64,000 bases of DNA from Anaerolineae bacterium (GTDB lineage: Bacteria; Chloroflexota; Anaerolineae; B4-G1; SLSP01). A program made the position numbers and the translations under genes. The stretch spans positions 35,188-99,187 of the forward strand of contig DAOTVC010000039.1 in NCBI GenBank assembly GCA_034437215.1, given 5' to 3'. Positions 49,763-64,000 of this stretch are shown in pieces (the first letter of the stretch is position 1; each line of letters opens with the position of its first letter). The notes beneath the pieces were generated by a model. That model was not told the origin of the DNA and did not search any database. It saw nothing but the letters and a program-made list of their open reading frames with translations.

Positions 49763-50066
49763 GTCATAACTGGAGGGGAACCCTAGTGTTTTGTCAAGTG
49801 TCAATTGATGAACGTGCATGGCGTCTTATCAGCCGGGGTAACTCGACTGCAGTCGCTATCCGAGGCGCTAACGCACCGCACGCCGACCTACGTCGACGCG
49901 AGTTCCGTCCACGCAGGTGGACGGTCGGCCAACGGCCCCGGTAGAGTACTTCAGTGCTCGTTTGTGGCTGTTTATCAAATCAGGTTTGACAAACCACTAG
50001 AGTGATCAGCGACTGGAACGTGCCTCGCATCAGATGTGAGAAAACACGGGCACCAGGCGGCTGCTG

Positions 50067-51065
50067 CTAGCTCTCGGCGCTCTCGGCCTCCGCGATGATG
50101 TCCCCCTGACGCAGGGCCTCCCGGGAGATCTCGAAACGCGGCTGTACCTTTCGCCAGAGGTAGAGCCCGCCCAGCACCAACCAGGGCACCCCCAGAGCGC
50201 CCAGCAGGAAAGCGGGGTGGGGCAGATGGGGCGCGCCCGAGAAGCGGTCGAGGTTGAAGAGGATGAGGACGATGGCCGTCCAGACCGTGAGGAAGTTGGG
50301 GATGGCATCCCCGGAGTGAATGGCCCCCAGACCGGGCGTGCGCTTCTTGGTCAGGGGCCAGAAGAGGTTGCTGCCCATGTAACCGCTCTGATCTTCGATC
50401 ACGTGGCCTGCAAAGCCCAGCCCCATCACGATCCCCGCCCACCTCCCCAGGAGCAGGGCTGCGACGAGCCCCAGCAGCAGGGCGACGACGAGGCTGTGGG
50501 TCCAGCGCCGGTGCCAGTCGAGGAAGTGGACGTAGAGCTTACCCTCCTCACGGGCGAAGCGAAAGGAGGGCCCGCTGAAGATGTTGATCTTGTACTCGGA
50601 GCTGTAGGTGTGGACGAGGGGCACGTCGAGCTTGCGCCGGGCCTCCGCGACCCCCTCGGGCTCCGTACCCGCGTAGGGCACCTGGCCGGTGTTGACCAGC
50701 GGCCCTACCCGCACGGCCACCTCACCGGCCTCGGGGTCGAAACGGATGGCGTACTCCCGCCAGAGATCCGGCCCCAGCCGGATGGTGTGCGCCATCACGT
50801 TCTGCGGTCGTCCCGACGCGTAGGCCTCCTGCATGGCAGCGACGAGAGCGTCGGCGATGGCCTCGGGGTCGGGGTCCGCTTCCGCCTCGATCTCCAGGTC
50901 GTACCTCTCGAAGTAGCGGGCGAACTTGAAGTCGAGGGTGTCGGGCAGGATCCCGCCGACGCCGCCCAGCATGGGCAAGAGAGCGCCGTCGGCTCCCGCT
51001 GCGACCACCTCGGGAAAGAAGGTCGCCAGCGCCACGCCCGTGATGAAGTGCGAGATACCTTTCAT
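50067..51065 (-). CDS. Membrane protein, possibly a DUF457/YdjM-type membrane-bound metal-dependent hydrolase carrying a ~140-aa soluble insertion
   Basis: N-terminal HFITGVALA.. and C-terminal H..D..LFWPL-type segments; family assignment is tentative. Confidence 0.35.
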   Translation of the reverse strand: MKGISHFITGVALATFFPEVVAAGADGALLPMLGGVGGILPDTLDFKFARYFERYDLEIEAEADPDPEAIADALVAAMQEAYASGRPQNVMAHTIRLGPDLWREYAIRFDPEAGEVAVRVGPLVNTGQVPYAGTEPEGVAEARRKLDVPLVHTYSSEYKINIFSGPSFRFAREEGKLYVHFLDWHRRWTHSLVVALLLGLVAALLLGRWAGIVMGLGFAGHVIEDQSGYMGSNLFWPLTKKRTPGLGAIHSGDAIPNFLTVWTAIVLILFNLDRFSGAPHLPHPAFLLGALGVPWLVLGGLYLWRKVQPRFEISREALRQGDIIAEAESAES

Positions 51066-51215
51066 GAGTTCATACCCCTTTCGAGAGTATTACCGCGAGA
51101 AGGAGCCAGGGATCAGGGATGAGGAGTCAAGATAGGAACACCGGCCTGACCTGTAGGCCCGTTGAAAATAGTCTGTCTGTATTTTAGCAACCCTAGCAAG
51201 CACACCCTCCAGCTC

Positions 51216-52628
51216 TCAGTGCTGGCGCCGCAGGTTCATCGGGTAGCGGCTGCGCAGACGCCCCCCACCCCGCTTCCCCCACCCGAGCGGCAAACCGTCG
51301 ACGGTGACGAGGACGTGGCCCGCGAGCCCTTCGTCGGGCCAGAAGCCGCCCCGCAGGAACTTGGCGATCCGCGGGTCGTCGGGCGCCAGGGAGATCGTAG
51401 TGGTCGCCTCCGAGGGCCGCAGCGCCATCGCCAGGGCGTGATTGGGCTCCACGCGTCCGTGGCGCAGGCTCGCCACCCACCAGCCGGGTCGCAGCACCCG
51501 CAGCCCCTCCCAGTAAGAGGGGGCCAGCGGCACGACGTAGAGCTGGTCGTCGGAGCTCAAGACCAGCCCCGCCTCCGGGGGCGCGCCCTGCAGGGCGGGT
51601 CCCACCCACTCCCGGTAGAGATTCAACACCCGTCCGGGCACCTCGTTGGCCTCCCACTGCAGCGGTAGAGGCCCGGCAGGCTCACCCCGCCGGTGGAGCA
51701 GCGCGTAGAAGTGCCCGTGTCCGGGCCCCCGGTGGGGCCAGAAGCGCCCCGCACCCCGCAGGGTCTCCGGCGCCCCCACCCACTCGGGGTGCCCGGGATA
51801 GAGTCCCGGGAGATCGGGGAGAGTCGCCACCTCGAAGTCGGGATGGGCAGCGAGAAAGGCGGCGACGGTGCCCTCGTTCTCCTCCGGGGAGAAGGTACAG
51901 GTGCCGTAGAGGAGGCGTCCGCCCGGACGGACGAGGGGCGCGGCTTGATCCAGAATCCCCTGCTGGCGGTGCGAGTAGGTTTTCACCGTTTCCCCGCTCC
52001 AGTCGGCGAGGGAGCGTGGGTCGCGCGCGAAGGTCCCCTCCCCCGAACAGGGTGCGTCCACGAGCGCCGCGTCGAAGAGCCCGGCCCACCGCTCCGCCAG
52101 GCGGTCGGGGTACTCGTTGGTGATCAGAGCCTGGGTCACCCCCATCCGCTCGACGTTCATCGCCAACACCGAAGCCCGGTGGCGGTGTACCTCGTTGGCC
52201 ACGAGCACGCCCTGGTTTTCCATCCGCGCTGCGAGGTGGGTGGCCTTGCCGCCGGGGGCTGCGGTCAGATCGATCACCCACTCGCCGGGCCGGGGCTGCA
52301 GCAAGCAGGCGGCGGCCATCGCGCTGGGGTCCTGGACGTAGTAGAGCCCGGCGGTGTGGTAGGGGTGGCGGCCCACCGCCTCCTCGTCCTCGGGGAACCA
52401 GCGCCCTTCAGCGCACCAGGGCACCGGCTCCGTCTCCCAGGGGAGACGGGCGAGCAGCTCGGGGAGCGCTCCCCGAGCTGCATTCAGACGGAGGCCGACG
52501 TCCCGCCGGGCCAGGGCCGCCAGGAAGGGTTCGAGCTCCCCGGCGCCCAGCCATGCGGCCATCCGCTCGCGGAAAGCCGCAGGCCAATCAGGCTGCCCCT
52601 CAACCCCATTCACATCCCCACCCCGCAA
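51216..52628 (-). CDS. 16S rRNA (cytosine-C5) methyltransferase of the RsmB/RsmF (NOL1/NOP2/Sun) family
   Basis: SAM-binding DLTAAPGGKAT and catalytic DAPCSGEG motifs; 470 aa suggests RsmF-like. Confidence 0.8.
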   Translation of the reverse strand: MRGGDVNGVEGQPDWPAAFRERMAAWLGAGELEPFLAALARRDVGLRLNAARGALPELLARLPWETEPVPWCAEGRWFPEDEEAVGRHPYHTAGLYYVQDPSAMAAACLLQPRPGEWVIDLTAAPGGKATHLAARMENQGVLVANEVHRHRASVLAMNVERMGVTQALITNEYPDRLAERWAGLFDAALVDAPCSGEGTFARDPRSLADWSGETVKTYSHRQQGILDQAAPLVRPGGRLLYGTCTFSPEENEGTVAAFLAAHPDFEVATLPDLPGLYPGHPEWVGAPETLRGAGRFWPHRGPGHGHFYALLHRRGEPAGPLPLQWEANEVPGRVLNLYREWVGPALQGAPPEAGLVLSSDDQLYVVPLAPSYWEGLRVLRPGWWVASLRHGRVEPNHALAMALRPSEATTTISLAPDDPRIAKFLRGGFWPDEGLAGHVLVTVDGLPLGWGKRGGGRLRSRYPMNLRRQH

Positions 52629-52705
52629 TCGATGAACGTCCTCTTCAGCAAGGATCTCGCTCTTGCATCAGGCATTACACAGTACGAGATATGCAATAGT
52701 CCGCC

Positions 52706-53959
52706 CTACTCCTTCTCGTAGGGTTGGCCGTCGGCGGCGGGCGCCCGCGTGCGCCCCACCACCCCGGCCAGGACGATCATCGTCACCAGGTAGGGGGCCA
52801 TGAGCAGGAACTGCGACGGGATCGGCACCTGCATGATGGCCAACTTCGTCTGCAGGGAGTCGGCAAAGCCGAAGATCAGGGAGGCTCCGAAGGCCCCGAT
52901 GGGATTCCAATTGCCGAAGATCATCGCAGCCAGGCCGATGAAGCCCTTGCCCGCCGTCATCAGCTCGTCGAAGCGGGCCACGGAGCTGAGAACCAGGTAG
53001 GCGCCGCCCAAGCCGCCCACGACGCCCCCGAGGATGACGTTGAGGTAGCGCATCTGAAAGACGTCGATGCCCAGGGTGTCGGCGGCGCGGGGATGCTCCC
53101 CGACGGCGCGGGTGCGCAACCCCCACCGCGTGTAGAAGAGCGCCACGTAGATGGTGAAGACCAGAATGATGGTGAGATAGACGGGGATGGTGCTTCTGAA
53201 AAGCACCGATCCGATGACGGGAATGCGGCTGAGAAGGGGGAGAGAGAGTCCGCTAAAGGTGGCGGGGCTGTTGAGAGCCGCGTTCTGCTGAAGATAGCGG
53301 GAGCTGAAGTAGCTGGTGAGCCCCGTCGCCAGGATGTTGATAGCCGTACCCGCGATGATCTGATCGACCTTGTAACGGATGGCGAGCACCGCTAACATGG
53401 CCCCCATCAACCCACCGGCGAGGAGGGCCGCGATCAGGCCGACCCAGACGTTGTCGCTCACACTGCCGATCAGCGCCGAGATAAAGGCGCCCGTGAGCAT
53501 CATCCCCTCGATGCCGATGTTGACGACGCCACTGCGCTCGCAGAGAATACCGCTCAGCGCAGCCAGGACGATGGGGATGGAGCGCAGCAGGGTGGACTGC
53601 AACATCCCGGTGACGTTCATCGACCTGCCCCGGGCCGCCCAGGTCAGAAAGGCCAGGATGAAGAAGAAAGCCACGAAGCCCAGAGCGAGGTTTTGCCGCT
53701 TAAAACCCCTGGCCAATTGCCAGACTCCCAGCGCTCCGTTGATAAACGCCATAACAGAGAGGAAGAGACGGGTATTGAAAGTGAGATCCCCAATCAAGAG
53801 AACGTCGCCCCGGGCGCCCCAGGTGAAGGTGGTCTCCAGATCGGCAGGTGTGCTGGCTACGAAGAGCAACAAGATGGCCAGGGCTGCCACAATGAAGGTA
53901 ATGCCCAGGCCGATGCGCCTGCCGGTTCCACGTTTTTCGATAACGATTTGTTGTTCCAT
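52706..53959 (-). CDS. ABC transporter permease for the BMP/nucleoside-type system
   Basis: Polytopic permease in an operon with the BMP substrate-binding proteins. Confidence 0.75.
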   Translation of the reverse strand: MEQQIVIEKRGTGRRIGLGITFIVAALAILLLFVASTPADLETTFTWGARGDVLLIGDLTFNTRLFLSVMAFINGALGVWQLARGFKRQNLALGFVAFFFILAFLTWAARGRSMNVTGMLQSTLLRSIPIVLAALSGILCERSGVVNIGIEGMMLTGAFISALIGSVSDNVWVGLIAALLAGGLMGAMLAVLAIRYKVDQIIAGTAINILATGLTSYFSSRYLQQNAALNSPATFSGLSLPLLSRIPVIGSVLFRSTIPVYLTIILVFTIYVALFYTRWGLRTRAVGEHPRAADTLGIDVFQMRYLNVILGGVVGGLGGAYLVLSSVARFDELMTAGKGFIGLAAMIFGNWNPIGAFGASLIFGFADSLQTKLAIMQVPIPSQFLLMAPYLVTMIVLAGVVGRTRAPAADGQPYEKE

Positions 53960-53974
53960 GTCATTCTCCTGCCT

Positions 53975-55168
53975 TTAGCCCCAACCCCGGGTCAACACTA
54001 ACTCCTGCTCCTTCTCCACACGGACCCGGTAGAGGGTCCGGATGATGGCGGGAGCAGCGACGAAGACGATGATAAGCCCCTGCAGGATGGAGGTGATATC
54101 GATGGGGATTTTCGCGACGCCCTGCATGTTGGTGGCGCCCGCCCGCAGGGCACCAAAGAGGAGCGACGCGAGCACCACGCCCAGAGGGTGGCTCTTCCCC
54201 AAGAGGGCCAGGGCAATGGCGTCGAAGCCGTACCCTGCATAGAAAGCGTTGGGCATGAAGCGAATGACGCCGAGAATATCCGCCGGAGCAGCCAACCCCG
54301 CCAAGCCTCCGCTGATGAGCATCGTCACCAGGATGATCTTCGGAACGTTGATGCCTGCGTAGCGCGCGGCGTCGGGGCTCTGGCCGACGGTGCGGATCTC
54401 GTAGCCCAGGGTGGTCTTGAAGAGCAGCCACCAGACGAAAGCGGCGGCCACCAGGGCCAGAATAAAACCGGCGTTCAAGCGGATGGTGGAGTCGGAGGGG
54501 AAGAACTGGGGCAGATAGGCGGAGGGCTGCACCTGAGGGCTGACCGGGCGGTAGCCCTCGCGGGCCATCGGCCCGCCCACGTCCAGCATGAACTCCGCCA
54601 GCCGGTAAGCGATGTAGTTCATCATGATGGAGTTGATGACCTCGTGCGCCCCGGTCTTGGCTTTAAGCACGCCCACGATGCCCGCCCAGACCGCTCCGCC
54701 CGCGATGCCGGCCAGCAGGGCCAGGGGCAGGTGCACAATCATGGGCAGTCCCGTGAGGCTGTAGCCGACGTAGACGCTGGTGAGCCCGGCGACGAAGTAC
54801 TGGCCCTCGGCGCCGATGTTGAAGAGTCCGCCCTGAAAGCCGAAGGCCACCGCCAGTCCGGCAAAGATGTAGGGGGTGGCGATGCGCAGCGTCTCGGTGA
54901 TGTGGTAGAGATCGCCGAAGGCTCCCACGGCGAAGGCGCCGTACGCCAGGGAGATCACCTCCCAGGCGCGCCGGAGCCCCGCGCCTATCCCCTCGCCGAA
55001 GGCGGCGATGACCGTATCGTCGGTGATGATAATCAAAAGCGCGCCCAAAATCAGCGCCGTGACGATGGCCAGAACCGGAATCAAGAGGCTCTGCAGCGTA
55101 CCCCGGGATAGCTCCCACCGGGATGCGTCCTTGCGTTCTTCCCGTTCTCGTCTCTCGTTGTCGTTCAT
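53975..55168 (-). CDS. ABC transporter permease for the BMP/nucleoside-type system
   Basis: Polytopic permease; the 4-nt overlap with the ATPase gene indicates translational coupling. Confidence 0.75.
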   Translation of the reverse strand: MNDNERREREERKDASRWELSRGTLQSLLIPVLAIVTALILGALLIIITDDTVIAAFGEGIGAGLRRAWEVISLAYGAFAVGAFGDLYHITETLRIATPYIFAGLAVAFGFQGGLFNIGAEGQYFVAGLTSVYVGYSLTGLPMIVHLPLALLAGIAGGAVWAGIVGVLKAKTGAHEVINSIMMNYIAYRLAEFMLDVGGPMAREGYRPVSPQVQPSAYLPQFFPSDSTIRLNAGFILALVAAAFVWWLLFKTTLGYEIRTVGQSPDAARYAGINVPKIILVTMLISGGLAGLAAPADILGVIRFMPNAFYAGYGFDAIALALLGKSHPLGVVLASLLFGALRAGATNMQGVAKIPIDITSILQGLIIVFVAAPAIIRTLYRVRVEKEQELVLTRGWG

Positions 55169-56724
55169 AGTGTCTCTCCCGGCTCGATGATGATGTCCCT
55201 TTCGGCTTCTTCCCGAGAACGCACGCCGGCCATCAGCAGTCCGATCTTCTCCTTGGTCGCCTCCTCGGCGGGCACCACGTCCATAATCTCGCCCTCGTAT
55301 ATGACGATGATGCGGTCAGTCAGCCCCAGGACCTCGTCCAGCTCGGCGGAGACGACGAAGACGGCGGCGCCCTCGTCGCGCTTCTTCACCAGCTGTGAGT
55401 GGATGTACTCGATGGAGCCCACGTCGAGGCCGCGGGTAGGCTGCGAAGCGATGACCAGCTTCACCTCCCGGCTCAGCTCGCGGGCCACGATCACCTTCTG
55501 CTGATTCCCACCGGAGAGATTGCTCACCGGTGTCAGGATGTCCGGGGTCCGGATGTCATACTCCCCGACGAGCCGTTCGGCGCGCTCCGCGACGGCGCCC
55601 TGCTGCATCACCGGCCCCCGCGCGATGGGCGGCAGATAGTAGGTGTTCAGAATCAGGTTGTCGGCGACGGAGTAGCCCAGCACCAGCCCGTTACGCTGGC
55701 GATCCTCGGGGATGTGCGCCGTCCCCGCCTCGGTGATCACGCGCGGCGAGCGGTTGGTGACCGCCTGGCCCAGAATCTCGATGGAGCCGCCCGCCACCCC
55801 ACGCAGACCGGTGAGAGCCTCCACGAGCTCGGTCTGTCCGTTGCCCTGGACGCCCGCCACGCCCACGATCTCACCGGCGTGCACCTCGAAGGAGATGCCC
55901 TTCAGGGCGACCTCGCCGTGCTCGCCCAGCACCTGCAGATCGTCCACGTCCAGGATGATCTCGTCGGGATGGGCCTCCTCCTTCGAGACCTCCAGGAGAA
56001 CTTCGCGGCCCACCATCATGGCGGCCAGATCCTTCTCACTGCTCTCCTCGGGCGTCGTCTCCCCCACCTGCTTGCCCCCTCGCAGAACGACGATGCGATC
56101 CGCCAGGGCCAGGACCTCCTTCAGCTTGTGGGAGATGAAGATGACCGACTTGCCCTGCGAGACCAGCGACTCGATGACCTCGAAGAGCCCCTCCACCTCC
56201 TGGGGGGTCAGGACCGCCGTCGGCTCATCGAGGATCAGAATGTCGGCGTTGCGGTAGAGGAGCTTGATGATCTCTACCCGCTGCTGCAACCCCACGGGGA
56301 GATCGCCCACCAGGGCTCGGGGATCGACCTGCAGCCCGTACCGCTCGGAGATCTCGCGAATCCTCTCCGCTGCTGCCTTCCGATCCAAAAAGACGCCGTT
56401 CTTGAGGGACTCCATCCCCAACATCACGTTCTCCGTCACGGTGAAGACGGGGACGAGCATGAAGTGCTGGTGCACCATGCCGATACCCAGGTCGATGGCG
56501 TCGTTGGAGTCCTCGATGGTGACCTTCTCACCACGGACGTAGATCTCGCCCTCGTCGGGCGCGTAGAGGCCGTAGAGCACGTTCATCAACGTGGTCTTGC
56601 CGGCTCCGTTCTCCCCCAAAAGCGCGACCACCTCCCCTTCGTGCAGCGTGAGATCGACGTGATCGTTGGCCAGCACGCCCGGGAAGCGTTTGGTGATGTC
56701 CTTCAGTTCCAGAACCGGGGGCAT
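55165..56724 (-). CDS. ABC transporter ATP-binding protein with two fused ATPase domains
   Basis: Two Walker A motifs (GENGAGKTT; GVQGNGQTE) and two LSGG signatures; 519 aa. Confidence 0.85.
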   Translation of the reverse strand: MPPVLELKDITKRFPGVLANDHVDLTLHEGEVVALLGENGAGKTTLMNVLYGLYAPDEGEIYVRGEKVTIEDSNDAIDLGIGMVHQHFMLVPVFTVTENVMLGMESLKNGVFLDRKAAAERIREISERYGLQVDPRALVGDLPVGLQQRVEIIKLLYRNADILILDEPTAVLTPQEVEGLFEVIESLVSQGKSVIFISHKLKEVLALADRIVVLRGGKQVGETTPEESSEKDLAAMMVGREVLLEVSKEEAHPDEIILDVDDLQVLGEHGEVALKGISFEVHAGEIVGVAGVQGNGQTELVEALTGLRGVAGGSIEILGQAVTNRSPRVITEAGTAHIPEDRQRNGLVLGYSVADNLILNTYYLPPIARGPVMQQGAVAERAERLVGEYDIRTPDILTPVSNLSGGNQQKVIVARELSREVKLVIASQPTRGLDVGSIEYIHSQLVKKRDEGAAVFVVSAELDEVLGLTDRIIVIYEGEIMDVVPAEEATKEKIGLLMAGVRSREEAERDIIIEPGETL

Positions 56725-56861
56725 ACCTCCTCCTTGAAACTTGTCGGCTATGAATCAGGAATGATGCAAGGTGGGATGCGTAGCGCGTGACCCACGGCCA
56801 CACACTACGCATCCCTTTTCTCACGAAACTCGGGTAGGTGCGCTATGCACACCAGATCTTT

Positions 56862-57959
56862 CTACTGGCTGGACCCCAGATAGGTGTCCCAGCCGGTGTC
56901 GATCTCGCCGTCGATGATGCTCTGGCGAATGTTCTCCACCTCGCCCATCACCTCCTCGGCGACCACACCCTCAGTGACGGGGGCGATGCCCACGCCGTCG
57001 TTCTCCAGCGTGCCGATGTAGGGCGCCTGCCCCTCGAAGTTCTCGAAGTCGGGCTCCAACATCAGGGCGATGGTATCGTAGACGGCGTTGTCCATCCACT
57101 TCACCACGCTGGTCAGGACGATGTCGGCGTACTCGGGAGCGCTGAAGGTCCAGTCGGTGTCCACACCGATGATCCAGGCGTCGCCCTGCTCCTGCACGGC
57201 CTGCGCGGAGCCCAGCCCCACGGGACCGGCGACGGGCATGATGACGTCGGCGCCCTCGGACAGGAACTCCTCGGCCACCCGGCGCCCATCGGAGGTGGAC
57301 TCGAAGTTGCCGACGAAGACGCCGTCCGCCTCTGCGGTGCTCCACCCTAACAGCTCCACGTCGGCGTCGTGCTGCTCGTTGTAGTACTCGACGCCCGACT
57401 GGAAGCCGACCATGAAGATGGTCACGGTGGGGATCTTGATCCCGCCGTAGGTGGCGACGATGCCGGTCTGGGTCGCGGCTGCGGCCAGGTATCCGGCCAG
57501 GAAGCCGGCCTCGTCGGTGGCAAAGCTCAGACCCCGGACGTTCAGGTATTGACCGCCGTAGTCGTAGTCGACGATGGCAAACATCGTCTCGGGGTTCTGC
57601 TGGGCAAACTCCTCGGTGGCGTCAGCGAGCAGGAAGCCGACGGTGACGATCAGATCGGTCTCCTGCCGGAGCAGCTGGTTGATGTTCGTAGCATAGTCGG
57701 TCTGCTGCTGGGACTCCAGCACCGTGCCCTCGACGTTCAGCTCCTCCCTGGCGCGTTCAACGCCCCGCCAGGAAGTCTGGTTGAAGGAGCGGTCGTCCAC
57801 GCCGCCGATGTCGGTGACCATGCCGACGAGGAGAGTCGGCTCCTCCGGCGTCTCCTCGGTGGGCGCCTCCGTCGGAGTCGCTTCGTCTCCCCCACAGGCG
57901 GTCAGCAGCATGCTGACCACGACGAACAGACTCAGTAACATCCACAAACTCTTACGCAT
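56862..57959 (-). CDS. BMP-family (PnrA-like) ABC substrate-binding lipoprotein
   Basis: Lipobox LLTAC; BMP-family sequence. ATG at 57959 has an AGGAGGG RBS; the track ORF is extended to 58022. Confidence 0.8.
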   Translation of the reverse strand: MRKSLWMLLSLFVVVSMLLTACGGDEATPTEAPTEETPEEPTLLVGMVTDIGGVDDRSFNQTSWRGVERAREELNVEGTVLESQQQTDYATNINQLLRQETDLIVTVGFLLADATEEFAQQNPETMFAIVDYDYGGQYLNVRGLSFATDEAGFLAGYLAAAATQTGIVATYGGIKIPTVTIFMVGFQSGVEYYNEQHDADVELLGWSTAEADGVFVGNFESTSDGRRVAEEFLSEGADVIMPVAGPVGLGSAQAVQEQGDAWIIGVDTDWTFSAPEYADIVLTSVVKWMDNAVYDTIALMLEPDFENFEGQAPYIGTLENDGVGIAPVTEGVVAEEVMGEVENIRQSIIDGEIDTGWDTYLGSSQ

Positions 57960-58261
57960 TGGTATCCCTCCTGCTAAAGTTAACAATCGTACCGACCGCC
58001 AGATTCTCCTCTGCTTTCGCACACCTCCTTAGATTAGGAACTGGGACTTGTTGGTCAGTGGGCCCGGAGGATCCGCAGGTACCAAGTGGGACGCGGTCCC
58101 TGGGCGCCTCTACCTTCAATTATACTCCAGCCGCTTGAGGGTCGCAATTGGCGCCCCCAGGTGGGGGCGCTTCAGGGACAACAACAGACGAGGACGGAAG
58201 GTGGGCACAAGTAAGGAGGGGGTGGATCACCACCCCCTCCTTGAATGGGTACGAGAAGTGC

Positions 58262-60373
58262 TTACTCGCTCAGGCCGGCCAGGTAGGCGCTCCAACCGGT
58301 TTCAATGTCCCCGGCGATGATGCCCTGCTTGACCTGCTCGATCTCGTCCAGCACCTCGGCAGAGACGGCGCCGCTGGCGACGGGGGCGATGCCCACACCG
58401 CTGTTCTGCAGCGTGCCCAGGTAGGTCTCCCCACCGAAGCTCGAGAAGTTCTCGCGGGCCACCTTCTTAATAGTGTCGAAGACTGCCACGTTCATGTTCT
58501 TGAGGACGCTGGTGAGGATGATCTCCTCGTACTCACCCGCGCTCACCGCCCAGTCGGTGTCCACGCCGATGATCCAGGCGTCACCCGCCTCTTTCACCGC
58601 CTGCGCGGAGCCCAGCCCCACGGGACCGGCGACGGGCATGATGACGTCGGCGCCCTCGGCCAGGAACTCCTCGGCCACCCGGCGCCCGTCGTCCGTCGAC
58701 TCGAAGTTGCCGACGAAGACGCCGTTGTTCTCGGCGGTGTTCCAGCCCAGAACCTCGACGTCGGCGTCGTACTGCTCGTTGTAGTAGGCCACACCGGCCT
58801 CAAAACCCACCATGAAGATGGTCACGGGCGGGATATTGATGCCCCCGAAGGTAGCCACCCGGCCCGTCTGCGTGGCCGCCGCCGCCGCGTAGCCGGCGAG
58901 GAAGCCCGCCTGATCGGTGGCAAAGGTCAGCCCGCGCACGTTCTCGATGGGGGGATCGTAGGCGAAATCGACGATGGCGAAGTTGGTATCGGGGTTGTCC
59001 TGCGCGAACTGTGCCGTGTCGTCGGCCAGCAGGAAGCCCACGGTCACGATGAGATCGGTATCCTGCTGCAGGTACTGGGTGAGGTTGGTGGCGTAGTCCG
59101 TCTGCTGCTGGGACTCCAGGTAGGAGCCCTCGACGTTCAGCTCGGTTATGGCCCGGACGATGCCCTGCCAGGCCGTCGCGTTGAAGGACTTGTCGTCGAT
59201 GCCGCCGATGTCGGTCACCATCCCGACGGAGATCTCGCGGTACTCGGGCTCCGCGGGGGCCACCCCCAGGGACTCGAGGTAGGCGCCCCAACCCGTTGCC
59301 AGCTCACCGGCGATAATCTGCCCCTTGATCTGCTCCAGCTCCTGGCGCAGATCAGCGTCGATGGTGCCCTCAGCAACCGCGGCGATACCCACGCCGTTGT
59401 TCTCCAGCGTGCCCAGGTAGGGCTCCCCGCCGAAGTCGGTGAAGCCGGGGGCGGCCACCCTCTCGATGGTGTCGAAGACCGCCACGTCCATGTTCTTGAG
59501 GACGCTGGTGAAGATGACGTCCTCGTACTCGGGCGCGCTCACCGCCCAGTCGGTGTCCACGCCGATGATCCAGGCGTCACCCGCCTCTTTCACCGCCTGC
59601 GCGGAGCCCAGCCCCACGGGACCGGCGACGGGCATGATGATGTCGGCGCCCTCGGCCAGGAACTCCTCGGCCACCCGACGCCCGTCGTCCGTCGACTCGA
59701 AGTTGCCGACGAAGACCCCGTTGTTCTCGGCGGTGTTCCAGCCCAGAACCTCGACGTCGGCGTCGTGCTGCTCATTGTAGTAGGCCACACCGGCCTCAAA
59801 ACCCACCATGAAGATGGTCACGGGCGGGATATTGATGCCCCCGAAGGTAGCCACCTTGCCCGTCTGCGTGGCCGCTGCCGCCGCGTAGCCGGCGAGGAAA
59901 CCCGCCTCGTCGGTGGCGAAGGTCAGCCCGCGCACGTTGGGGTAAGCGCCGCCGTAGGAGTAGTCGACGATGGCGAAGTTGACATCGGGGTTGGATTCCG
60001 CGAACTGCGCCGTGTCGTCGGCCAGCAGGAAGCCCACGGTCACGATGAGGTTGGCGTCCTGCTGCACGTACTGGGTGATGTTGGTGGCATAGTCCGTCTG
60101 CTGCTGGGACTCCAGGTAGGAGCCCTCGACGTTCAGCTCCTCGATGGCGCGCTCGATGCCCTGCCAGGCCGTCGCGTTGAAGGATTTGTCGTCGATACCG
60201 CCGATGTCGGTCACCATGCCGACGAGGAGAGTCGGCTCCTCCGGCGTCTCCTCGGTGGGCTCCTCCGTTACCGGCGGCTCCGTCGGTTCGGGCACCGGCG
60301 TGGGCCGGCAGGCACCCAGCAACATCGAGACGACGAGCACCAGGCTCAACAGTAACCAAAACTTCTTCTGCAT
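58262..60373 (-). CDS. Fused tandem-duplicated BMP-family substrate-binding lipoprotein (two complete BMP domains, 703 aa)
   Basis: Lipobox LLGAC. The two halves are about 90% identical to each other and to the downstream single substrate-binding protein. Confidence 0.8.
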   Translation of the reverse strand: MQKKFWLLLSLVLVVSMLLGACRPTPVPEPTEPPVTEEPTEETPEEPTLLVGMVTDIGGIDDKSFNATAWQGIERAIEELNVEGSYLESQQQTDYATNITQYVQQDANLIVTVGFLLADDTAQFAESNPDVNFAIVDYSYGGAYPNVRGLTFATDEAGFLAGYAAAAATQTGKVATFGGINIPPVTIFMVGFEAGVAYYNEQHDADVEVLGWNTAENNGVFVGNFESTDDGRRVAEEFLAEGADIIMPVAGPVGLGSAQAVKEAGDAWIIGVDTDWAVSAPEYEDVIFTSVLKNMDVAVFDTIERVAAPGFTDFGGEPYLGTLENNGVGIAAVAEGTIDADLRQELEQIKGQIIAGELATGWGAYLESLGVAPAEPEYREISVGMVTDIGGIDDKSFNATAWQGIVRAITELNVEGSYLESQQQTDYATNLTQYLQQDTDLIVTVGFLLADDTAQFAQDNPDTNFAIVDFAYDPPIENVRGLTFATDQAGFLAGYAAAAATQTGRVATFGGINIPPVTIFMVGFEAGVAYYNEQYDADVEVLGWNTAENNGVFVGNFESTDDGRRVAEEFLAEGADVIMPVAGPVGLGSAQAVKEAGDAWIIGVDTDWAVSAGEYEEIILTSVLKNMNVAVFDTIKKVARENFSSFGGETYLGTLQNSGVGIAPVASGAVSAEVLDEIEQVKQGIIAGDIETGWSAYLAGLSE

Positions 60374-60519
60374 TGATCTCCTCCTAAATAGTTGGAAATT
60401 GGGGTTTAAAGGTTTGGGTGGTAGTCATTGACCTCTCTGTTGGATGAAATTCTACCTCCTCTGAAGAAGATTGTGGGGTCGAACACCAGACGCCGGATGT
60501 GGCTTGAACATCCTCTCCG

Positions 60520-60548
60520 ATTATACCGCTAGAGTGCCGCCGGGACAA
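60520..60548 (-). promoter_or_regulatory. Promoter of the BMP operon: TTGTCC-N17-TATAAT on the minus strand, followed by a ~150-nt 5' UTR and AGGAGGA RBS
   Basis: Read from the reverse complement. Confidence 0.45.
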
Positions 60549-60603
60549 TCGCCCGCCGGCATCCGCTGTCGCCCAAGTGGCGTGCAGGGGTGACGGGTAA
60601 CGC

Positions 60604-60638
60604 GTCCCGGTGCCGGCGGCATCGGCCGGCACCGGGAC
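60604..60638 (-). terminator. 13-bp perfect GC hairpin GTCCCGGTGCCGG..CCGGCACCGGGAC just downstream of the clpC stop
   Basis: Seen in the sequence; no U-tract. Confidence 0.4.
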
Positions 60639-60647
60639 GACACTCAA

Positions 60648-63131
60648 CTACTCCTCGACGAGCGGCTCCGCGACCTCGGCCTCGACACTCCCGGGCACGT
60701 CCTCCGACTTCTCGAAGGTCAACTCGCCCTCCACCTCGTCGATGAGGATCACGTCTCCGGCCGTGAAGCCATCGCCCAACAGGCTGACGCTCAGGGGGCT
60801 TTCGACGTAACGCTGGATGGCACGGCGCAGGGGACGGGCACCGAATTGGCTGTCATACCCCTGCTCGGCAAGCCAACGCTTCGCCTCGGACGTCAGGCTG
60901 ACCCGCAGGTCAAACTCCGCGAGACGCTCCTTCACCTCGAGCATCTGCAGGTCGACGATCTGCTCGACGTCCTCCACCGAGAGGTGGTTGAAGACGATGA
61001 TCTCGTCGACGCGGTTGATGAACTCGGGCCGGAAGGTCCGCTTCAACTCCGAGAGCATCCGGCGCCGCGTCTCCTCCTCCTGAGCGTCCCCGGCCTGCAC
61101 GAAGCCGATGGCCCCGCCCTGTCGCAGGTACTCGGTCCCCACGTTGGAGGTCATAATGACCACGGTGTTGCGGAAGTCCACCGTGCGCCCCTGTCCGTCG
61201 GTGAGGCGCCCCTCGTCGAGGATCTGCAGCAGGGCGTTCCAGATGTCGGCGTGGGCCTTCTCGATCTCGTCGAAGAGCACCACCTGGTAGGGGCGGCGCC
61301 GCACCGACTCGGTGAGCTGCCCCCCCTGATCGTAGCCCACGTAACCCGGAGGCGCTCCGAAGAGCCGGGAGACGGTGTGCCCCTCGCGGTACTCGCTCAT
61401 GTCCACCCGCAGCAGGGCGTCCTCGTCGTCGAAGAGGAAGGCCGCCAGCGCCTTGGCCGTCTCGGTCTTCCCCACACCGGAAGCGCCCAGAAAGAGGAAG
61501 GAGCCGATGGGGCGGCGGGGATCCTTCAGACCGGCACGGGCGCGGCGGATGGCGTCGGCGATGGCCTGGATGGCCTCGTCCTGCCCGATGATCCGCTCCT
61601 GAACGGCCTCCTCCATGCGCAGCAGCTTCTTGGCCTCCGCCTCCAGCACCTGCGCCACGGGGATCCCCGTCCAGGCGGAGACGACGTCGGCGATGTCCTC
61701 AGCCTCGACGGTCTCGTCCAACTGGTGGCTCTCCAGCCACTCCTCCCGCTTCTTGCCGAAGACCTGTTCCAGCCGCAGGCGCTGGGTCTTGATGTCGGCA
61801 GCGCGCTCGTAGTCCCGCGTGTTCCCGGCGGACTCCTCCTCCTTGCGCAGCTTATTGATCTCCGCCTCCATCCGCTTGAGGTCAGGGGGCAGGGTGAAGA
61901 GCGCCACGCGCAACTTCGCCGCCGCCTCGTCCATCAAATCGATGGCCTTATCGGGGAGATGGCGGTCGGTGACGTAGCGGTGAGAGAGGCGGGCCGCCGC
62001 TGCCAGAGCGGCGTCGGAGATGCGCACCTTGTGGTGGGCCTCGTAGCGGTCGCGCAGCCCCTTCAGCATCTGGATGGTGTCCTCCACCGAGGGTTGCTCC
62101 ACGAAGACGGGCGCGAAACGGCGTTCGAGAGCGCCGTCCTTCTCGATGTACTGCCGGTACTCGTCCAGCGTCGTCGCGCCGAGAGCCTGCAACTCCCCAC
62201 GGGCCAGGGCGGGCTTGATCATGTTGGAGGCGTCGAGCGCGCCGGCGGCGTTGCCCGCACCGACCACCGTATGCAGCTCGTCAATGAAGAGGATGATCTC
62301 CCCCTCGGCGCGCTGCACCTCCTCCAGAATCCCCTTCAGACGCTCCTCGAACTCACCCCGGAAGCGGGTCCCGGCGACCAGGGCCCCCAGGTCCAGCTGC
62401 ACGAGGAGCTTGCCCTTCAGAATCTCGGGTACGTCGTCGGTGGCGACGTGCTGCGCCAGCCCCTCGACGATGGCCGTCTTCCCCACGCCCGGCTCGCCGA
62501 TGAGCACGGGGTTGTTCTTCGTGCGCCGCACGAGGATCTGGATCACCCGCTGGATCTCGGCGTCCCGCCCGATGACCGGATCGAGCTTCTGCTCGCGGGC
62601 CATCTGGGTCAGGTCACGGCTGTACTTCTCGAGAATGCGGTAGCCGGACTCCGCACGGGGCGTCGTCACATGCTGCCCCCCGCGCATCTCCTGAATGGCC
62701 TCGAGGGCCAGGTCGCGGGTCACGCCGTACTCCTGGAAGAGCCGGGCGACGGAGGTATTGCGCTCGTGCAAGATGGCGAGGAAGAGATGTTCGGTGGAGA
62801 TGTACTCGTCCTTGAGCTTGTTCGCCTCCTCCTGGGCCAGATCCAGCACCCGCTTGACCCGCGGGGTGATGAAGACCTGCTGACCGCCCCGGGCGCCGTA
62901 GATGCCGGGGCGCACGTTCTCGCGCAGCAGCTTGTCCAGCTCCGTGGCCAACTCCGTGGGCTCGGCGCCCATATCGCGGAGCAGCTCGGAGACCGTGCCC
63001 TCGGGCTGTTGGATGAGCGCCAGCAGGAGGTGCTCCACGTCCACCTGGCTGTGACCGTACCGGGTCATCAGCTCCACGGCCTGCTGCGCTGCCTGCTGGG
63101 CGCGTTCGGTAAATCGATCAAAACGCATCAT
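60648..63131 (-). CDS. clpC: ATP-dependent Clp protease ATP-binding subunit, ClpC-type (two AAA+ modules, short middle domain, Clp_N repeats)
   Basis: Two Walker A motifs (GEPGVGKT; GASGVGKT). 827 aa with a short inter-domain linker, so ClpC rather than ClpB. Confidence 0.85.
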
Positions 63132-63196
63132 GCTTCTTAACCTCTCAACGGGGACGCCCGTCCCCCTCTGCTGCTGACTATTTATAAGGTAAGGAC

Positions 63197-63330
63197 GGCT
63201 CTTCTGAAGAAAGCTCTCTTACCACGGAGATCACGGAGATTTTTGAAGTTTAACTTTCATAAGAATCTCCATGATTTTCTCAGTATTCTCTGTGTCCTCC
63301 GTGGTGAAATAGAGTTCTTTCAGTAGAGCC
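63197..63330. mobile_element. MITE-like element, copy 3: shorter (~134 bp) derivative in the opposite orientation, flanked by a 6-bp direct repeat AAGGAC
   Basis: The reverse complement aligns with copies 1 and 2 (CACCACGGAG..ATCTCCGTG..), with an internal deletion of about 35 bp. Confidence 0.45.
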
Positions 63331-63339
63331 AAGGACAGG

Positions 63340-64000
63340 TTACAGCGCGAAGGATTTGAGAGCCTCACGGGCCGCTGCCTGTTCGGCACTCCGCTTGCTC
63401 GCTCCTACCCCCTCACCGATGACCCGCTCCTCGATGAGCACCTGAGCCGTAAAGACCTTGGCGTGGTCCGGCCCCTCTTCCTTGATAATTTGGTAGGTGG
63501 GCGTGATCCCCGTCTCGGCCTGGGCCCACTCCTGAAAGCGGGACTTGGCATCCACGTAGGAGCGCGCCTCCAGAATCGTCTCCGCTTCGCGCGCGAACCA
63601 GGCAGCCACGCGCTCCCAGACCACCTCCAATGAACTGTCGAGGTAGAGGGCGCCGACGGTCGCCTCCAGCGCATCGCACAGGTTTGCCGGTCGTTCCCGC
63701 CCACCCCCCTCCTCCTCACCGTGACCCAATCGCAGCGCGGCACCGATGTCCAGCTCTTGCGCGAGGCGGGCGAGGGTCTGGGTACGTACCAGGGTGGCCC
63801 GCAGGCGGGTGAGAGGTCCCTCGGAGAAGTCGGGGAACTCGCTGTAGAGCCAGGCGGCGACGAGAAAGTCCAGCACCGCATCTCCCAGGAACTCCAACCG
63901 TTGGTTGTGATGCTCCTCGCCCCCCTCCTCGGGGTGCTCGTGCGCGTAGGAAGGGTGGGTGAGGGCCAGACGGAGCAACGCCGGATTTTGAAAGGTGTAG
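63340..64000 (-). CDS. rnc: Ribonuclease III; its N-terminus runs past the window end
   Basis: ..FQNPALLRLALTHPSY..NQRLEFLGDAVLDFLV.. RNase III signature and C-terminal dsRBD. The reading frame continues to position 64000. Confidence 0.85.
   Translation of the reverse strand, partial: YTFQNPALLRLALTHPSYAHEHPEEGGEEHHNQRLEFLGDAVLDFLVAAWLYSEFPDFSEGPLTRLRATLVRTQTLARLAQELDIGAALRLGHGEEEGGGRERPANLCDALEATVGALYLDSSLEVVWERVAAWFAREAETILEARSYVDAKSRFQEWAQAETGITPTYQIIKEEGPDHAKVFTAQVLIEERVIGEGVGASKRSAEQAAAREALKSFAL

Follow-up and report, generated by a model that had tools for sequence, protein, structure and literature searches.

The 64,000-nt stretch of DNA analysed here (the window; contig DAOTVC010000039.1 of assembly GCA_034437215.1) holds an ordinary CUT2-type, nucleoside-type ATP-binding cassette (ABC) importer locus of an uncultured Anaerolineales (Chloroflexota) bacterium. 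Its receptor has three similar BMP-family (PF02608) domains, of which A and B are fused in a 703-aa lipoprotein and C is encoded alone by the next gene. We conclude that this tandem PnrA-type receptor, A-linker-B plus C, is likely an old fusion kept alike by recombination, and that it likely serves a nucleoside importer.

In the mechanism that we propose, homologous recombination between repeats spaced by 996 nt, by gene conversion and possibly unequal crossing-over, would uphold the similarity of the copies. A core of ~390 nt in A and B would have been homogenised after the split from the nearest sequenced relative, and a patch of ~60–80 nt would have been copied between C and A/B. Homogenisation would not have reached the hinge loop or the 3′ third of each domain. 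Conversion and unequal crossing-over probably both operate.

The receptor would thus come in two lipid-anchored forms, the 703-aa A-linker-B and the 365-aa C, each gene having its own putative promoter and a predicted strong 3′ hairpin. Both forms are presumed to feed one translocator made of an ATPase and two permeases. We infer this shared translocator, and also that a second binding site on the double's anchor is of functional benefit.

Similarity of the three domains

A sequence-only reading of this DNA had pointed out three BMP domains, one gene being a fused tandem double, and one ATPase and two permeases after the substrate-binding protein (SBP) genes. Open reading frame (ORF) calls and Pfam agree on all of these. 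The 703-aa double has two PF02608 Bmp stretches (E=3.7e-104, 348.4 bits against the gathering cut-off of 24.1) and the single SBP has one (189 bits against the same cut-off). The latter had been read rightly as a single-domain protein, while its length of 366 aa counted the stop codon and is 365 aa.

A repeat finder recovers three in-register copies, 1400 and 996 nt apart. Segment 58561–58730 (B) is 98.2% identical in nt to 59557–59726 (A) and 90.0% to 57161–57330 (C), and the C and A segments are 88.2% identical. The sequence-only reading had started the third segment at 59560, out of register by 3 nt, which gives 41% as written, and 59557–59726 restores the similarity.

Over whole domains the nt identities are 86.6% for A–B, 76.5% for A–C and 74.8% for B–C, and the aa identities are 81.5%, 72.2% and 69.4%, respectively. 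The A–B identity is a mosaic, reaching 97–99% at alignment nt 361–630 and falling to 62–79% in the 3′ third. C comes to 91–93% with A and B only near alignment nt 541–630. The longest exact A–B run is 107 nt (58538–58644 and 59534–59640; codon-shuffle p=0.0006), and the longest exact B–C run is 61 nt (57199–57259 and 58599–58659; codon-shuffle p<1e-4).

The two SBP genes also have a 29-nt exact match at the tether/domain boundary (60225–60253 and 57829–57857, encoding EETPEEPTLL). Around it, the signal-peptide and tether sequences have diverged, with indels.

Age of the fusion

The fused double is an old architecture and is widespread in the class Anaerolineae. In 117 of the 120 best homologues, a single polypeptide contains two BMP domains at full length, and some of these proteins are encoded on contigs of 0.5–4.5 Mb. 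The database match at 100% to the 703-aa double is P0001 from a metagenome-assembled genome (MAG) named Anaerolineales bacterium.

The A–B junction TGWxAYLxSLGxxxxEPEYxxIxVGMVT recurs in eight dereplicated proteins of the window's clade (P0001, P0003, P0004, P0006, P0008, P0009, P0011 and P0012). It is unlike the N-terminal tether in this clade. The shared junction, distinct from the tether, argues for one ancestral fusion for the clade.

The clade proteins with this junction are 72–78% identical to the window protein, and the syntenic order clpB, double, ATPase, permeases and rsmF is kept in loci L001 and L003. Since junction and synteny are conserved in relatives only 72–78% identical, the fusion appears old, and hence the A–B similarity would be upheld by recombination rather than being a residue of duplication. 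For the same reason, the recent duplication suggested by the sequence-only reading is not borne out.

The receptor set varies in syntenic loci at 76–85% ClpB/ATPase identity, with the double only in L001 and L003 and a single only in L004 and L005. In the window and in an independent assembly, L087, both the double and the single lie between the clpB and ATPase genes. The best 80 GTDB representative loci, viewed with 4-kb flanks, include none with the 2+1 layout.

The closest relative of C is P0123 (78% aa, 81% nt), the sole SBP of the syntenic locus L004 in another genome, so C does not appear to be a fresh copy of A or B. The promoter and leader regions of the window's two SBP genes have only the −10 box in common (local alignment score 10.5). 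Hence, the duplication giving C has left no recognisable upstream homology.

Concerted evolution and gene conversion

Within a protein, A and B are 72–100% identical in 116 of the 117 fused doubles, the exception being P0095 (53%). The doubles are 50–78% identical to the window's domains, and the close orthologue P0002 is 91–93% identical. A position-specific signal, joining A with A and B with B, is almost nil across the 117 doubles. The phylogeny of the domains and their orthologues, proposed in the earlier reading, was made as a neighbour-joining tree of 148 dereplicated proteins, and A and B are exclusive sisters in 40 of its 62 doubles.

At the nt level, A and B are 87%, 93%, 80% and 99% identical in four genomes, and the identity between genomes is 59–76%. 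Ten more fused doubles from GTDB species representatives have A–B identities of 79–99%. The paralogues within a genome are thus more alike than the orthologues between genomes although the duplication is older than the split, as in concerted evolution.

Among codons for identical amino acids, A and B differ synonymously at 7 of 125 in the core (codons 106–235) versus 22 of 140 elsewhere (Fisher p=0.01). The same codons show 36–54% synonymous difference between species, at equal levels in core and flanks.

A quartet test compared the two domains of the window with those of L006/P0002, the nearest orthologue, which comes from another sample and is 89.5% identical in nt. A site was called concerted when both copies in one genome differ from both in the other. 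The core (nt 361–630) has 1 orthology and 10 concerted sites, and the sequence outside it has 62 and 8, respectively (Fisher p=2.3e-7). Therefore, the core was homogenised since the window/L006 split, and the ends kept their orthology.

For C, all 14 informative sites at alignment nt 549–630 place it with A and B, not with its orthologue L004S, and the observed statistic was reached in none of 300 permutations. Discrete tracts, lowered synonymous divergence and lineage-specific changes in both copies are found together, as expected of gene conversion. The ongoing conversion suspected in the sequence-only reading is upheld by the exact runs, the synonymous contrast and the quartet test.

Could strong purifying selection and codon bias, acting on the best-conserved region of the fold, explain the high-identity tracts without any recombination? 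The core (GADxIMPVAGPVGLG...IIGVDTD) is indeed the family's most conserved stretch at the protein level, and the genome is GC-rich with biased codons. This explanation is nevertheless highly improbable, as the same codons differ synonymously by 36–54% between species with no core/flank contrast, against 5.6% for A versus B in the core. The synonymous divergence of orthologues in the core was checked and is not as low as that of A versus B. Moreover, relative to both orthologue copies, the core has 10 concerted sites and 1 orthology site.

Alternatively, A, B and C might be alike as young copies from a recent tandem duplication without conversion. The overall A–B identity is high (86.6% nt), and in some other lineages the junction repeats the tether and A and B are 99–100% identical, which fits fresh duplications there. 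For the window's receptor, we consider this very unlikely. The junction and synteny are common to genomes only 72–78% identical, identity is a mosaic of 62% to 100% along the domain, and synonymous divergence is likewise uneven. Lineage-specific substitutions in both copies cluster in the core, and C is nearer to another genome's orthologue than to A/B, save for one short tract.

Several points weigh against an old fusion kept alike by recombination in a nucleoside importer. The trees are neighbour-joining with p-distance-type corrections and without bootstraps. Shared codon usage in a genome raises synonymous similarity, though it leaves the clustering of the signal unexplained. Gene conversion and cycles of unequal crossing-over would leave patterns indistinguishable with the present data. 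In P0022, P0048, P0054 and P0107, the junction is a repeat of their own N-terminal tether and A–B identity is 97–100%, which suggests a fresh re-duplication or a conversion tract through the linker. Where doubles are near-identical, some of their single-domain 'relatives' may result from short-read assemblies that collapsed the repeat.

On the ligand, titles of PDB entries name riboflavin (RfuA) and atrazine (AtzT) as bound by other BMP-family members. Among NCBIfam models, the best match falls below its threshold and is a 'putative B6' family, NF047927 ABC_BMP_B6 (putative vitamin B6 SBP), to which the double scores 107.8 and the single 61.7 against a cut-off of 400 bits. The ATPase and permeases also stay under their NCBIfam cut-offs. 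With nothing above an NCBIfam threshold, no equivalog name can be assigned.

Assembly

The sequence-only reading would have been undone by an assembly artefact, namely a short-read assembler expanding a single-domain or rearranged gene or stitching strain variants in tandem. Repeats of ~1 kb are difficult for short-read assemblers, and many homologues end at contig edges inside the repeat. However, the independent assembly L087 (GCA_046541445.1, JBKHDH010000106.1) is 99.85% identical in nt to window 49997–64000, with 18 mismatches and 2 gaps, and it agrees with the window both in the double-plus-single layout and in every residue of the 703-aa protein. An artefact is unlikely because of this shared layout.

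L006/P0002, from another sample, has the same fused double, its A and B being orthologous to A and B of the window, respectively. Other assemblies contain over 115 fused doubles, some on 0.5–4.5 Mb contigs. Moreover, with 13% of sites differing between A and B, reads can be placed uniquely outside the core. We regard an artefact as scarcely credible.

Twenty homologues are doubles cut at a contig end inside the repeat. They include P0122–P0130, P0135, P0148, P0181, P0200 and P0207, as well as P0210, P0230, P0234, P0235 and P0237. The repeat fragments short-read assemblies, so receptor copy number in MAGs is probably under-reported.

Ligand, pocket and hinge loop

The closest solved chain by both sequence and fold is 7X0R, the C. 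thermocellum Lbp (E=5e-46), which was modelled with guanosine by its authors (PMC9601137). S. pneumoniae PnrA, B. burgdorferi BmpD and BmpA, and T. pallidum PnrA come next. In BmpA numbering, the nucleoside in these structures is contacted by F27 and F176, which form an aromatic sandwich, and by D19, D24, N28, D98, F151, V224, D225 and K242, which bind the ribose or base (PMC13325309, PMC7093131). All ten are conserved and identical in A, B and C. Nucleoside uptake is thus the best inference, and the substrates of the importer are most likely nucleosides.

The position aligned with BmpA Ile147 is Pro, Pro and Thr in A, B and C, respectively. Directly after the ribose-binding Asp lies a hinge loop, which reads YSYGGAYP in A, YDYGGQYL in C and FAYDPPIE in B. 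Homogenised sequence flanks this island of divergence, in which B stands apart from A and C. A small set of loop types is found repeatedly in the family, namely GGxY, DPPI, SLG and a long insert containing Cys. Most doubles have one type in both halves, and the window protein is in the minority mixing two.

Divergent residues between the copies had been thought to tune the ligand range. This is little supported because all ten pocket residues are identical, and what does differ is the Ile147-aligned residue and the hinge loop. A related possibility is that A, B and C are sub-functionalised receptors with different ligands, the hinge loop and the C-terminal third being kept different by selection. 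It is compatible with the conversion model.

The divergence island right behind the ribose-binding Asp, with homogenised sequence on either side, would fit sub-functionalisation, as would the recurrence of the same loop types across the family and their pairing in a minority of doubles. In BmpA, TmpC and PnrA, small loop changes near the pocket shift the nucleoside preference (PMC13325309). The identity of all ten first-shell residues in A, B and C and the same loop type in both domains of most doubles speak against it. On balance, sub-functionalisation is possible but unlikely.

A hinge-loop insert of ~16 residues with two cysteines (YPDCWPGAVVGKDCGSD) occurs in both halves of P0034, P0037, P0038, P0039, P0052, P0069 and P0070. 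It may form a disulfide-stapled loop.

Predicted structure of the double

Structural modelling, which had been proposed in the sequence-only reading, gives an Lbp/PnrA/BmpD fold. With an alignment of 56 sequences, AlphaFold2 yields a mean predicted local distance difference test (pLDDT) score of 88.7 and a predicted template-modelling (pTM) score of 0.82 for the whole 703-aa chain. The tether alone is disordered in the model (residues 21–42, pLDDT below 50). The one-domain fold matches 7X0R, 6Y9U, 6SHU and 2FQW at target-normalised template-modelling (TM) scores of 0.79–0.86, and the model has the two-lobe periplasmic-binding-protein fold of PnrA, BmpD and Lbp. A PDB chain covering both domains was not found, the query-normalised TM being at most 0.40.

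The pTM of 0.82 suggests a defined A–B packing in the model. In a duplicated protein, covariation within each domain may also be mistaken for contacts between domains, so the score could be artefactual. One might further imagine that the double is a fixed pseudo-dimeric unit, in which homogenisation across Anaerolineae is favoured by selection, for instance for receptor symmetry. The hinge-loop 'alleles' would then be moved between domains, genes and lineages by the same recombination, as cassettes that re-tune nucleoside specificity. We think this rather improbable. If true, it would mean recombination-driven diversification of receptor specificity inside a homogenised scaffold.

Wider receptor family

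A survey of species representatives covered the best 80 loci, which do not include the window's own genome. A lone BMP gene is present in 56 of these, two unfused BMP genes, mostly side by side, in 14, and a fused double in 10. Across the doubles, the repeat period is 314 to 348 residues. Three BMP domains in one protein are found in P0036 (1071 aa). The receptor family thus comes as a single gene, adjacent genes, a fused double, a fused triple or, as here, a double plus a single.

Related Chloroflexota also have larger fusions, in which a double BMP is extended by a binding domain of the phosphonate type (PF12974) or the amino-acid type (PF00497). The larger fusion proteins are P0033, P0034, P0036, P0037, P0041, P0052 and P0086.

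Locus organisation and expression signals

The importer genes all lie on the minus strand in the order double SBP, single SBP, ATPase and two permeases (Table 1), with clpB and the RNase III gene upstream and rsmF and ydjM downstream. SBP genes with a neighbouring double-cassette ATPase gene and two permease genes of the BPD_transp_2 family (PF02653) make up the gene set of the CUT2 class (TCDB 3.A.1.2). Their order is the same in L001–L005.

In both SBPs, a signal peptide is followed by a lipobox Cys and a Pro/Thr/Glu-rich tether. By inspection, the signal peptide runs up to the lipobox Cys as VVSMLLGA/C in the double and VVSMLLTA/C in the single. The start of the latter is the ATG at 57959, which has a Shine–Dalgarno sequence, and the ORF from the GTG at 58022 would have 386 aa.

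Table 1. Features of the importer locus, in window coordinates (HMM, hidden Markov model)
Feature	Position	Strand	Basis
Fused double BMP (PnrA-like) substrate-binding lipoprotein gene, 703 aa	58262–60373	−	ORF call; PF02608 twice
Signal peptide and lipobox (MQKKFWLLLSLVLVVSMLLGA/C, Cys22), Pro/Thr/Glu-rich tether aa 23–46	60236–60373	−	Translation
BMP domain A, aa 47–371	59261–60235	−	HMM envelope
Inter-domain linker APAEPEY	59240–59260	−	Within the junction conserved across the window's clade
BMP domain B, aa 379–703	58265–59239	−	HMM envelope
Single-domain BMP lipoprotein gene, 365 aa; domain C at 56865–57839; lipobox LLTA/C	56862–57959	−	ORF, Pfam
Putative A–B conversion tract, domain A arm; 92–100% identity to 58535–58924	59531–59920	−	Mosaic identity, exact run 59534–59640
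Putative A–B conversion tract, domain B arm	58535–58924	−	Mosaic identity, exact run 58538–58644
Putative short conversion tract in C, common with B (61 nt exact) and A (46 nt exact)	57199–57259	−	
ABC ATPase, two fused ABC_tran cassettes, 519 aa	55165–56724	−	Pfam
Permease 1, BPD_transp_2, 397 aa	53975–55168	−	Pfam
Permease 2, BPD_transp_2, 417 aa	52706–53959	−	Pfam
Sigma-70-like promoter of double SBP gene, TTGTCC-17-TATAAT; leader ~145 nt	60520–60548	−	10/12 matches
Sigma-70-like promoter of single SBP gene, TTGCGA-17-TATAAT; leader ~160 nt	58119–58147	−	10/12 matches
13-bp GC-rich hairpin directly after double SBP stop	58215–58240	−	−29.2 kcal/mol, z=−5.1
Perfect 20-bp hairpin between single SBP and ATPase genes	56771–56816	−	Repeat finder, folding

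The promoter scan gives 2 sites where 0.4 are expected, and the −10 element of the double-SBP promoter is kept in the orthologue L006 and other relatives. The 13-bp hairpin is 97% conserved in L006, where a T-run follows it, and resembles a terminator or a stabiliser of the mRNA 3′ end. Directly after this hairpin, the L006 contig departs from the window, and its remaining 308-nt tail has no gene.

The 137-nt spacer between the single SBP and ATPase genes, with its 20-bp hairpin, has a minimum free energy of −58.3 kcal/mol (z=−4.8). By its position and stability, the hairpin is probably a partial terminator or an mRNA stabiliser that sets the SBP:translocator ratio.

An internal AGGAGGT(G/A) motif lies ~60–100 nt upstream of the true Shine–Dalgarno sequence in both leaders (60374–60520 and 57960–58119, minus strand), and similar motifs occur in leaders of relatives such as L001, L003 and L005. 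The motif might act as a standby site or regulatory element. An alignment of seven related SBP leaders shows no convincing common structure, the conserved parts being only the −10 box, the Shine–Dalgarno sequence and the recurring internal AGGAGGT. An Rfam scan of 50000–64000 (E<=1) gave chance-level miRNA and sRNA matches only and no riboswitch in either long leader.

Comparison with known systems

Many bacteria scavenge nucleosides mainly through BMP/PnrA-type receptors, and the characterised ones are all single-domain. No account of fused tandem BMP domains turned up in a limited literature search, an absence that does not by itself prove novelty. A lipoprotein with two complete BMP domains and its family-wide concerted evolution in Anaerolineae are apparently undescribed.

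The receptor offers a natural system for what a second identical site per anchor gives an ABC importer in capture rate, avidity or cooperativity. It is equally one for intragenic gene conversion shaping multidomain proteins. Practically, such repeats break or collapse short-read assemblies, and receptor copy number is probably mis-estimated in many MAGs.

The receptor resembles PnrA/TmpC of T. pallidum, PnrA of S. pneumoniae, BmpA and BmpD of B. burgdorferi and Lbp of C. thermocellum in the PF02608 family, the fold and the lipid anchor. It also shares with PnrA, BmpA, BmpD and Lbp the aromatic sandwich, the ribose-binding Asp and Lys, and the double-cassette ATPase with two BPD_transp_2 permeases. 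However, the solved or characterised members are single-domain proteins of ~320–360 aa, whereas here two domains are fused and a third is in the neighbouring gene.

The substrate-binding domains (SBDs) of Lactococcus lactis GlnPQ are PF00497-type, another SBP class. As in GlnPQ, two SBDs are joined covalently one after the other, so that each transporter has more than one binding site (PMC8025302, PMC11331510). Those of GlnPQ are fused to the permease and are divergent in specificity and affinity (PMC8025302). The window's domains instead belong to PF02608, form a separate lipoprotein, are 82% identical with the same pocket and are kept alike by recombination. The receptor has its own gene and signal peptide, and the permeases have no SBP domain, so the fusion to a transmembrane domain that marks GlnPQ-type systems is absent.

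Bacterial paralogues are well known to undergo gene conversion, for example tufA/tufB and the rRNA operons. As in these, paralogues within a genome are the most alike, the tracts are mosaic and synonymous divergence is lowered inside them. Unlike in these, the converting units are the two halves of one ORF and a neighbouring gene, and the pattern recurs family-wide in one class.

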